IMG/VR virus record: IMGVR_UViG_2880378312_000006
Reading direction: 5' to 3' (one strand)
Source: a virus
Taxonomy: Duplodnaviria; Heunggongvirae; Uroviricota; Caudoviricetes
Length of the DNA stretch: 64,000 nucleotides
A program made the position numbers. Positions 9,001 through 12,000 of the stretch are shown piece by piece; the first letter of the stretch is position 1, and the number at the start of each line of letters is the position of its first letter.

Positions 9001-12000
9001 TATTGATATGCCTGCCGGTCACGGTCACATGACACTGGAGTTTTCGGTGTCAGCATGGCTGGTAAATAACTGGTATCCCACAGCAAGTATCAGCGATTTG
9101 CTGGTTGTGGTGATGAAGAAAGCCACTGCAGGCATCACGATTAGCTGAATTTTATAACCCAGATACGGGCGCCAGAAATGGCGCCTTTTTTATTGCAGAA
9201 AAGCGAGAGGTAATTATGCGTAAATTATGTGCTGTTATTTTGTCCGCAGTAGTCTGGCAGGTCGCCGCTGCTACGCCAGCGAGTGCAGCAGAACATCAGT
9301 CCACGCTGAGCGCGGGGTATCTCCATGCCTCGACGAACGTTCCCGGTAGTGATGATCTGAACGGGATTAACGTGAAATACCGTTATGAGTTTATGGACGC
9401 GCTGGGGCTGATTACGTCCTTCAGTTATGCCAATGCTGAGGATGAGCAAAAAACGCGCTACAGCGATACCCGCTGGCATGAAGATTCCGTGCGTAACCGC
9501 TGGTTCAGCGTGATGGCGGGGCCGTCTGTACGCGTGAATGAATGGTTCAGCGCGTATGCGATGGCGGGTGTGGCTTACAGCCGTGTGTCGACTTTCTACG
9601 GGGATTATCTCCGCGTAACTGACAACAAGGGGAAAACGCACGATGTGCTGACCGGAAGTGATGACGGTCGCCACAGCAACACGTCTCTGGCGTGGGGGGC
9701 TGGCGTGCAGTTTAACCCGACCGAATCCGTGACCATTGACCTTGCTTATGAAGGTTCCGGTAGTGGCGACTGGCGATCGGATGCATTTATTGTTGGTATC
9801 GGATACCGTTTCTGACAACAGACGCCGATTTATCTTCTGTAAATATTGTTATGATACGCAGGTTCATCCACCTTATGGGGTGAACTGCGTTTGAGGAAAC
9901 GTAAAGTTACACTGTCCTGAAGCCCGTGGCGTCACTGCTGCGGGCTTTTTTTATTGGTGGAAAAGTATGACAGTAAAAATTTCTGGCGTGCTTAAAGATG
10001 GCACAGGAAAACCAGTACAGAACTGCACCATTGTGCTGAAGGCCAGACGAACCAGCAGCACGGTGGTGGTGAACACGGTGGCCTCTGAAAATCCGGATGA
10101 AGCCGGACGTTACAGCATGGATGTTGAGTACGGTCAGTACAGCGTCATTCTGTTGGTGGAGGGATTTCCTCCGTCACATGCCGGGACCATCACCGTGTAT
10201 GAAGATTCTCAACCCGGTACGCTGAATGATTTTCTCGGTGCCATGTCGGAGGATGACGTCCGGCCGGAGGCACTGCGCCGTTTTGAACTGATGGTGGAAG
10301 AGGTGGCGCGTCACGCTGAGGAGGCGAAGAAGAATGCCGGAGAGGCGGAGACGTCAGCGAGGAATGCCGGCATATCAGCCAGTCAGGCAGAAGAGAGCGC
10401 TGCAAATGCTGACACTTCAGCAGGGGATGCATCGGAGTCAGCCCGGCAGGCGGCAGAAAGTGCAGCCGCTGCAAAGCAGTCAGAGGAGGCGTCCTCGTCC
10501 TCGGCCTCTGCGGCCGCTCAAAAAGCCAGTGAGTCATTACAAAGTGCAACAGATGCTGAGTTGTCAAAAAAGACGGCAGAAAGTGCAGCCGGTAATGCAG
10601 CCAGGGATGCAACGACCGCAGCAGAAAAAGCCCGGGAGTCAGCAGAAAGCGCACAGTCAGCGGAACAAAGCAGGATAGCGGCGGAAGAAGCCGTAAACCG
10701 AATCCCCACCGTGGTGGGGCCTCCCGGGCCAAAGGGGGAACCGGGGCCCGCGGGTCCTCAGGGGCCGAAGGGAGATAAAGGAGAGCGTGGAGACACCGGC
10801 CCGGCAGGGGCAACCGGCGAACGGGGACCGGCAGGTGATGCTGGTCCGGCAGGCCCGCAGGGGCCGAAAGGTGACAGGGGAGAGCGGGGAGAGACCGGTC
10901 TGACGGGAAATGCAGGTCCACAGGGTCCAAAGGGAGACACCGGGGCAGCAGGCCCGGCAGGCCCACAGGGACCGAAAGGAGAAACAGGTGCGGCTGGCCC
11001 GGTGGGGGCAACCGGACCTCAGGGACCGAAGGGCGACCCGGGGGAGACACAAATCCGTTTTCGTCTGGGGCCGGCGAGCATTATTGAGACAAACAGCCAT
11101 GGCTGGTTCCCGGGTACAGATGGTGCGCTCATCACCGGACTGACCTTTCTTGCCCCCAAAGATACCACACGGGTTCAGGGTTTTTTTCAGCATTTGCAGG
11201 TCAGGTTTGGTGACGGGCCGTGGCAGGATGTTAAGGGGCTTGATGAAGTGGGCAGTGATACAGGCAGAACAGGAGAATGACATGAACATACTAAAAAAAC
11301 TTATGCAGCGTCTGTGCGGGCACGGAAAGCATGATGACCGTGAAGACGGGGAGTTACTTACAGCACAACTGCGTCTGGGGCCGGCAGACATCCTGGAGTC
11401 CGATGAGAATGGTATTATTCCGGAGCAGGACAGGGTAATCACGCAGGTGGTGATACTGGATGCGGATAAAAAGCAGATACAGTGCGTGGTAAGACCGCTG
11501 CAAATCCTGCGTGCTGACGGGACGTGGGAAAATATTGGCGGGATGAAGTAACCCGACAGCTTCACAAAACCGGAGTCCGGCTCCGGTTTTTGTTGTCATG
11601 TAAGGCAGATGTTTGTTAAAGCTATTTAAGTCTGGAGTTTAAATTAAAATAGGGAGTTTTATAATGCCGTTAAATTCGGAGATTAGATCAAGCTCATTTT
11701 TAATGGATTGAATGTCCTTCGAGCTCAAGTAGCATCTAGCGGTCGAGGGGAGTTTACATTAGGTAATGAGACTGTCAGCATTGTATTTAATGAAACCGAT
11801 GGGCGTTTTCTATCCAGCGGCAGTAGTGGGGGATTGCTTACTGAGTTATTCCTTTATGGGTTTAATAACGGCCCTGAAGCTCTTCGCGATAGGATGCTCA
11901 GTATGCTTTCGGACTCAGGTGAAGCACAATCGCAAGAGAGTATTCAGGACAAAATATCTCAATGTAAGTTTCCTGTTAGTTCAGGAAATTTCCAGTGCCC

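Follow-up and report, generated by a model that had tools for sequence, protein, structure and literature searches.

A putative tail fibre accessory gene, homologous to the fibre's own tip domain, directly follows a collagen-like side fibre gene in an Escherichia coli O157:H7 prophage

Background

Tfa proteins assist the trimerisation of phage fibre tips, and some of them stay bound. For the collagen-like side tail fibre EPclA, Ghosh et al. 2012 (PMC3368898) showed by experiment that the C-terminal PfC domain (Phage_fiber_C, PF06820) is an autonomous trimerisation domain, found that both recombinant EPclA and the isolated PfC trimerise without the small protein considered below, and gave evidence of coiled-coil structure and trimerisation for PCoil, a region of about 116 aa between the N-terminal domain PfN and the collagen domain Col; the small open reading frame (ORF) downstream of the fibre gene is not discussed in their paper. 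Here we describe such a gene pair in the IMG/VR virus record IMGVR_UViG_2880378312_000006 (Caudoviricetes), a stretch of 64,000 nucleotides referred to below as the window. On its plus strand a collagen-like side tail fibre gene of the EPclA type (437 aa, 9967..11280) is followed by a small ORF of 89 aa (11282..11551), and our best reading is that the latter, at the position that tfa has in lambda, encodes an accessory subunit that is associated with the fibre and translated separately. We do not take it for a relic, for a cassette to be swapped or for an extension of the fibre by frameshift.

The object as such is known: both genes are already annotated by Pfam and by the Prokaryotic Genome Annotation Pipeline (PGAP), and the observation and both earlier interpretations of it are on record. 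Mondal et al. 2016 (PMC5155283), whose deletions in the Shiga toxin 2 phage Sp5 covered almost every gene without a known function, reported that its 89-aa ORF68 carries the domain. GenBank entry KU977420 names the homologue atfT ("alternate tail fiber tip") and predicts a +1 frameshift, with a slippery sequence and a pseudoknot.

Results and discussion

Homology between the fibre tip and the small protein

A preliminary description of the window had pointed to an RLGPA motif common to the C-terminus of the fibre and the 89-aa ORF behind it. The motif region (LRLGPADILESDENG) is present as quoted, and it proved to be the start of a homology that extends over a full domain: both proteins match PF06820 (64 positions, gathering score 25 bits) over model positions 1–64, the fibre with 130.6 bits and the small protein with 123.4 bits, and BLASTP aligns them with 34% identity over 62 aa (E = 1e-9). 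We refer to the copy in the fibre (aa 363–426, 11053..11244, plus strand, E = 2.6e-38) as PfC-A and to that in the small protein (aa 28–89, 11363..11548, plus strand, E = 4.7e-36) as PfC-B. These matches support the view that the small ORF is a paralogue of the whole C-terminal PfC domain, and to this extent the earlier suggestion that it is derived from the fibre itself holds. The small protein has a protein family of its own, PHROG 576 ("tail fiber protein"), and is named "phage tail fiber C-terminal domain-containing protein" by PGAP. No membership of a Tfa family was detected, as the Pfam scan returned only PF06820 at E ≤ 0.1 and the NCBIfam search returned nothing.

Start signals and selection on the small ORF

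The comparative set comprised 85 homologous loci (from IMG/VR, with the window), 75 of which could be aligned without gaps over the region and yielded 60 unique haplotypes. As had been noted before, the small ORF begins one base past the fibre gene: the fibre stop TGA (11278–11280) is followed by a single C (11281) and the ATG at 11282. A Shine-Dalgarno sequence, AGGAG (11271..11275, plus strand), lies 6 nt before this ATG, within the last codons of the fibre. Among loci retrieved by means of the small ORF, the junction (AGAACAGGAGAATGACATG) is identical in 60/60 unique haplotypes, and the segment AGAACAGGAGAATGAC-ATG, which holds both AGGAG-N6-ATG and TGA-C-ATG, is invariant in the same 60. 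Three loci retrieved with the fibre tip have CTGGAG in place of AGGAG; altogether, no locus examined lacks the ATG, and nearly all have AGGAG. There is no terminator between the two genes, and one follows the small ORF, namely an intrinsic-terminator-like hairpin (AAAACCGGAGU / GCUCCGGUUUU) with a U-rich tail at the end of the module (11566..11596, plus strand; −21.2 kcal/mol and z = −3.65 by RNA folding), which is kept in 59 of the 60 haplotypes. We therefore count the small ORF as having the position typical of Tfa genes, immediately 3' of the fibre gene and co-transcribed with it. Because the Shine-Dalgarno sequence sits inside the last fibre codons and the stop/start junction is tight, translational coupling of the small ORF to the fibre is suggested, and the best reading of these signals is that the small protein would be translated separately, from its own ATG.

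The polymorphism of the two domain copies differs markedly. In PfC-B, 39 nucleotide haplotypes encode only 6 protein variants, the segregating sites are distributed 3/3/16 over the codon positions (16 of 22 at third positions), 17 polymorphic codons are synonymous-only versus 5 with amino-acid changes, and the ratio of nonsynonymous to synonymous polymorphism (pN/pS) is 0.04 (bootstrap confidence interval (CI) 0.003–0.12). In PfC-A, 42 nucleotide haplotypes encode 27 protein variants and pN/pS is 0.25 (CI 0.11–0.54; Fisher p = 0.036 for the difference in constraint), while the leader that precedes PfC-B in the small protein gives 0.36. The free copy of the domain is thus under stronger constraint than the fibre's own. 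An intact 89-aa ORF was found in 71 of the 75 assessable loci retrieved with PfC-A. A non-functional relic, i.e. an old 3' end of the fibre gene displaced and left behind by module exchange, would likewise be homologous to the fibre C-terminus and lie directly 3' of the fibre gene, but it would not be expected to show purifying selection that reduces 39 nucleotide haplotypes to 6 proteins, conserved start signals and terminator, an intact frame in nearly all loci, or retention of the pair in a lineage about 50% diverged (see below). The selection analysis effectively refutes this explanation, which we find hardly credible.

A minority of the loci carry damaged small ORFs. In L105 and L106 the leader is frameshifted, as in the protein P0039; in L158 the ORF is disrupted in the C-terminal part of PfC-B; and L092 combines a frameshifted leader with a mutation of the fibre stop to TGT.

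The atfT annotation implies a different use of the same sequence, in which a programmed +1 frameshift yields a longer fibre whose alternate or additional tip is supplied by the small ORF. The small ORF does lie in the +1 frame, which in most loci has no stop codon over the roughly 46 codons before the ATG, a run of seven T residues is found at 11181–11187, and the note in KU977420 predicts the slippery sequence and the pseudoknot. However, the +1 frame upstream of the ATG has a pN/pS of 1.58 and contains a stop in 4/60 haplotypes, the T7 run is present in only 29/60 (GFF alternates with GLF and GMF), a shift at this run would halve PfC-A, and the RNA of the junction is not unusually structured (z = +1.07 in a fold model without pseudoknots). 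In a divergent locus, L084, the geometry of the junction is different, yet the small gene again has its own Shine-Dalgarno sequence and ATG. Mondal et al. likewise found no frameshift-inducing sequence at ORF68 (PMC5155283). We therefore see no conserved frameshift device, and consider the frameshift explanation very improbable. Two specific devices were examined and rejected: slippage on the T7 run, which is not conserved and would leave PfC-A truncated, and a prfB-like +1 shift at GAA-TGA-C, which, judged from the sequence alone, has no re-pairing codon and the wrong AGGAG spacing. The records of the phages 933W and AU6Stx1 give the gene a greater length, 129 codons (390 nt), with a start farther upstream in the +1 frame; conservation favours the 89-aa ORF with its ATG start.

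Co-occurrence and age of the pair

The small ORF is present in 694 of 5426 complete E. coli genomes, at 6760 places (median 11 per genome), and PfC-A DNA in 693 of the 5426, at 6108 places. The carriers, which make up roughly 13% of the complete genomes and have about ten copies each, are mostly Shiga-toxin-producing or enteropathogenic E. coli among the matches listed. In all assessable loci retrieved with the small ORF an ORF ending in PfC-A lies directly upstream, so that the co-occurrence of the two is near-obligate. The preliminary description had allowed that the small ORF might be absent from related phages; both it and the PfC domain turned out to be conserved in them, and the pair occurs in siphoviral prophages as well as in podoviral phages carrying Shiga toxin (Stx) genes, such as 933W and AU6Stx1. 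Across three fibre/virion contexts the constant companion of the small gene is a fibre with a fibre-type PfC end.

The PfC-B family itself appears to be very narrow, because a profile search of 1.84 billion representative proteins gave only 91 matches. In the GTDB species genomes 2 loci were found, one of them probably a contaminant: L085, a contig of 725 nt from Xanthomonas pisi DSM 18956 (contig_138), carries an E. coli-type small ORF with 92% identity and most likely entered that assembly as a contaminant from E. coli.

The profile search also identified a divergent small ORF, P0128 (79 aa), on contig L084, which has no megablast match in complete E. coli genomes. Here a 212-aa non-collagen protein that ends in PF06820 is followed by P0128 with a gene overlap of 14 nt, an AGGAGG Shine-Dalgarno sequence and an ATG of its own, and the terminator stem after the pair (CCGGAG/CTCCGG) is the same as in the window. 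The small protein and P0128 also have a common leader pattern, M-x-I-x-K-K...C. Comparison of the domains between the window and L084 gave 40% identity (58 bits) for fibre-type against fibre-type copies and 52% (82 bits) for small-type against small-type, versus 30–34% (38–44 bits) in the cross comparisons of fibre-type with small-type. As copies of the same type are closer to each other than copies of different types, the PfC duplication would predate the split of the L084 lineage, with both copies retained together since. Small-type copies retain RLGPA in both lineages, and at its position the divergent fibre-type copies have QMGAN (L084) or RMGPL (L088); what is conserved is the PfC domain, rather than a motif common to both genes. 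Strong purifying selection, near-obligate pairing and the ancient split between fibre-type and small-type copies argue for a working protein rather than spare parts.

Two further relatives deserve mention. In the divergent prophage L088 (991–3846) a gpJ-like ORF is extended by Phage_fiber_2 repeats and stops after the initial strands of a PfC domain of the fibre type, which looks like a J-fibre fusion or a deletion with frameshift; an intact P0128-like small ORF is located 155 nt downstream. The 565-aa protein P0141 contains four tandem repeats of about 75 aa followed by collagen repeats, and each of the four is similar in its second half to the corresponding half of PfC (…VVVLDAD…LQVRRADGTWxEI…); a PfC-like beta module therefore seems to be reused as a repeat in another collagen-containing fibre.

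The possibility of spare parts was raised by Mondal et al. 2016 and, as an "exchangeable fibre-tip module", in the preliminary description: the small ORF would be a silent reservoir, a stored sequence recombined onto the fibre to change its tip. The two tip domains are homologous, and the RLGPA codons fall within a 14-nt exact direct repeat (CGTCTGGGGCCGGC, family D4) with one copy in the fibre gene (11062..11075, plus strand) and the other in the small ORF (11372..11385, plus strand). A deletion between these in-frame repeats, 310 nt apart, would give an in-frame fusion of the collagen region to PfC-B, and rare natural recombinants are on record, namely P0062, a collagen-PfC-B fusion, and P0134, a small-type/fibre-type chimera. 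Such a deletion would, however, be irreversible, no inverted repeats that could serve an inversion switch flank the alternate tip in 9800–12400, and P0062 (L089:4-291) is the only fusion of its kind, with 4 member sequences and an ORF cut by the contig end. The best 120 of 175 small-ORF relatives are all ≤131 aa long and include no full-length fibre, so that fibres tipped with the small-type domain are absent or extremely rare; exchange as a regular mechanism is not supported. Moreover, a silent copy needs no start signals, yet the ATG and AGGAG are kept and pN/pS is 0.04, and the two copies have stood side by side since before the split of the L084 lineage. Recombination between them is rare and is not the normal use of the gene, and we regard a reservoir function as distinctly unlikely.

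As for the details of these sequences, P0134 starts with the small-ORF leader and an N-terminal portion of PfC-B and then continues with C-terminal sequence of PfC-A. The idea that the 14-nt repeat is itself a constrained DNA element was discarded, since synonymous sites in both copies vary among prophages.

The genome counts bear on another alternative, that the small protein has a function independent of the fibre, either as a soluble receptor decoy on debris or lysogens, or as the product of a lysogen-expressed "moron" gene associated with the effector cargo. The small ORF outnumbers PfC-A by about 650 copies in the E. coli genomes, suggesting that it survives loss of the fibre; it lies at the boundary with variable effector cargo; and its homologue is non-essential for phage growth on K-12. 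Against this, a pattern scan found no promoter-like site on the plus strand between the upstream terminator and the small ORF, the tight stop/start junction suggests translational coupling with the fibre, and the gene accompanies the fibre in phages of different virion type. The protein has neither a signal peptide nor a hydrophobic region compatible with a lipobox, and no match in the defence-system libraries. Nor would a protein that is 34% identical to PfC-A be expected to block the receptor that the fibre itself uses. We consider a fibre-independent function unlikely.

The leader does contain LCG(C/H)G, and a lipoprotein or secreted protein was considered on that account; this candidate was rejected, as the leader has no hydrophobic core and codon 14 (11321–11323) encodes Cys, Tyr, His or Arg across prophage copies, while the adjoining Cys12 is conserved.

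Predicted structure and proposed role of the small protein

The best AlphaFold2 model of the small protein is an all-beta fold of six strands, preceded by a low-confidence helix (aa 3–12) and a disordered linker, which together correspond to the leader of aa 1–27 (11282..11362, plus strand), with its predicted short N-terminal helix and a linker that is variable. A Foldseek search of the PDB with this model gave as the top match the fibre-chaperone complex of phage Mu (5yvq_A; weak, E = 0.07), and the top, likewise weak, matches in BFVD were tail fibre proteins, so the model is consistent with a fibre-tip fold. No solved PfC structure was found by sequence, single-protein or profile search.

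The data establish homology, start signals of the small ORF's own, purifying selection, near-obligate co-occurrence and the keeping of the pair in a divergent lineage. An accessory-subunit function is favoured because a PfC-ending fibre is the constant partner, PfC is known to trimerise, the gene has the tfa position and the junction is only 1 nt. We propose the following explanation. The first gene would encode an EPclA collagen-like side fibre whose PfN collar plugs into the tail tip and is followed by a coiled coil and a triple helix of 37 triplets, with the C-terminal PfC knob trimerising and setting the collagen register. The second gene, the last before the terminator, would be translated on its own from the ATG one base past the fibre stop, giving another PfC knob of ancient divergence, preceded by a short helix and a variable linker. 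The product may trimerise in the manner of PfC and act on or at the distal knob of the fibre, either as a non-essential assembly helper that stays attached or as a distal cap or adaptor. It would thus fill the niche that Tfa has for lambda Stf, with a protein derived from the fibre's own tip. A role as a non-essential assembly or tip partner is the most likely one, and for the specific proposal of a trimer at the distal knob, acting as a dispensable helper or as a cap or adaptor, we see about an even chance.

Several observations weigh against this proposal. The AlphaFold2 monomer model of PfC-A was unusable (predicted local distance difference test (pLDDT) 54), in line with a cryo-electron microscopy (cryo-EM) preprint on phage phi24B, where AlphaFold likewise gave no confident model of this domain, and for the small protein only one of five monomer models was confident (pLDDT 74, about 85 over residues 30–89). 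The Sp5 mutant in ORF68 still makes plaques and lysogens on K-12, i.e. the gene is non-essential there (PMC5155283), and since EPclA trimerises without the small protein, any assembly role must be dispensable in the laboratory. The "chaperone" of the preliminary description can consequently be upheld only as a dispensable helper, while an obligate role conflicts with both results (PMC3368898, PMC5155283). The small protein has no sequence relationship to Tfa proteins, being instead a paralogue of the fibre's own tip. PfC-B is almost invariant and thus offers no basis for covariation with PfC-A. Finally, searches of the literature, also on virion proteomics, gave nothing that places the small protein in or out of the virion or on the fibre, and the phi24B preprint, which combines cryo-EM with proteomics, does not mention it. 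Tryptic peptides of the small protein are LGPADILESDENGIIPEQDR, VITQVVILDADK, QIQCVVRPLQILR and ADGTWENIGGMK.

A more specific idea, which we put forward tentatively and with some doubt, is that the small protein represents a distinct kind of fibre partner that evolved by duplication of the fibre's trimerisation/tip domain. A free PfC-B trimer might then dock on the PfC-A knob or template it. If true, the tip would be built in two tiers, or the fibre would have an assembly factor derived from itself; either would be important on smooth hosts in nature but not on K-12, and would be maintained in Stx- and effector-carrying phages of both siphoviral and podoviral type. The fibre and, presumably, its small companion are components of the adsorption apparatus in phages that mobilise Shiga toxin genes and genes for type III effectors. 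Whether the small protein serves as tip subunit, as assembly factor or in another way is a question whose answer would help to explain the host range of these phages. Our analysis reveals no new kind of system; it turns an old side remark of the literature into a concrete and testable question.

The fibre and its genome setting

The fibre begins with PfN (aa 1–133, 9967..10365, plus strand), an attachment or collar domain common with lambda Stf, which matches PF08400, the N-terminal domain of the EPclA architecture, with 230.7 bits (E = 6.1e-69). Residues 1–93 match chain Ta of PDB entry 9e7m, the tail fibre protein of Ur-lambda (phmmer E = 2.1e-50); residues 1–91 of Ur-lambda gpStfN form the collar domain on the tail tip (PMC12617516), and homology of the fibre N-terminus to this segment places it with the collar domains of the lambda Stf type. 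Next comes an Ala/Glu/Ser-rich region of 117 aa (aa 134–250, 10366..10716, plus strand, read from the sequence), which is the PCoil of Ghosh et al. The "coiled N-terminal region" described before therefore lies second, behind the globular PfN. The collagen triple-helix region (aa 251–361, 10717..11049, plus strand; PF01391) is a long uninterrupted run of Gly-X-Y as had been stated, although with 37 triplets by regular-expression count rather than about 35. It comprises 111 aa, the length listed in Table 2 of PMC3368898, contains the direct-repeat families D1 and D2, and is separated by one residue from the start of PF06820. A single uninterrupted Col domain capped by a C-terminal PfC is characteristic of EPclA. 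Instead of the "short C-terminal tail" reported earlier, the fibre ends in the folded 64-aa PfC-A domain plus an extension of 11 aa and the TGA stop (11245..11280, plus strand, by translation); all unique haplotypes encode the same amino acids in this extension, which is specific to the fibre-type copy. The complete fibre sequence is 100% identical in many O157:H7 genomes.

At the nucleotide level, 9800–11700 is 100% identical to many E. coli O157:H7 chromosomes, which identifies the window as DNA of this organism. Fibre gene and small ORF form a conserved tail-fibre module of two genes, which belongs to a lambda-like prophage (type Sp9 / CP-933P) and precedes nleG and nleA; the gene order is lambda-type minor tail genes, frameshifted gpJ, lom, fibre, small ORF, a frameshifted NleG-like gene and nleA. 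The prophage is probably defective because gpJ is frameshifted, yet the fibre and the small ORF are intact. gpJ, the tip attachment gene (approximately 5676–9148), is a frameshifted pseudogene in identical RefSeq loci, and the intact gpJ ORF of the window covers only the C-terminal 806 codons (6728–9148). Between lom and the fibre gene a pattern scan detected a terminator-like hairpin with a 13-pair stem and a T-run (9919..9958, plus strand). lom (9216–9815) is in fact flanked by two strong terminator-like hairpins (9167–9186 and 9919–9948, the second 19 nt upstream of the fibre start codon), as would be expected of an independently expressed accessory ("moron") gene.

Similarity between prophages stops just past the hairpin that ends the module, where the effector cargo starts. 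In 11597–16000 the GC content falls to 0.39, and integrase and insertion-sequence remnants are present; the NleG-like gene (11708–12238) is a frameshifted pseudogene in RefSeq, and nleA (12578–13903) is encoded on the minus strand. The block of fibre gene and small ORF could act as a homology anchor for the exchange of effector cargo between prophages.

Comparison with known systems

The fibre itself shows no difference from the EPclA of Ghosh et al. 2012, with the same PfN, PCoil, uninterrupted 111-aa collagen region and PfC in a total of 437 aa. ORF68 of Sp5 (ECs1229), NP_049520 of 933W, annotated as "tail fiber protein", and atfT of AU6Stx1 belong to the same 89-aa family as the small protein (92–99% identity by tblastn, PHROG 576). 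In the podoviral Stx phages the stand-alone PfC gene likewise stands directly after a collagen-like fibre that ends in PfC; the fibre upstream is the lateral fibre EPclB there and the siphoviral side fibre EPclA here.

In the G segment of Mu and the C segment of P1 two homologous tip-coding sequences also adjoin at the end of the fibre gene. The inversion systems differ from the present locus, where the second copy is in direct orientation and has its own start signals; no invertase was seen in the annotated neighbourhood of the fibre locus.

In position, the closest counterparts are the fibre/Tfa pairs of lambda (stf-tfa), Mu and P2, in which a small gene is likewise found directly 3' of the side-fibre gene. 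The N-terminus of lambda Stf is homologous to that of the fibre described here, and among known structures the model of the small protein is most similar, although weakly, to the tail fibre of Mu in the complex with its chaperone (PDB 5yvq). The locus differs from the Tfa pairs also in that the small gene was dispensable in the one phage tested, Sp5. To what was known of these systems our analysis adds the selection on PfC-B, the conserved start and terminator signals, the co-occurrence counts and the ancient split between the two copies of the domain.

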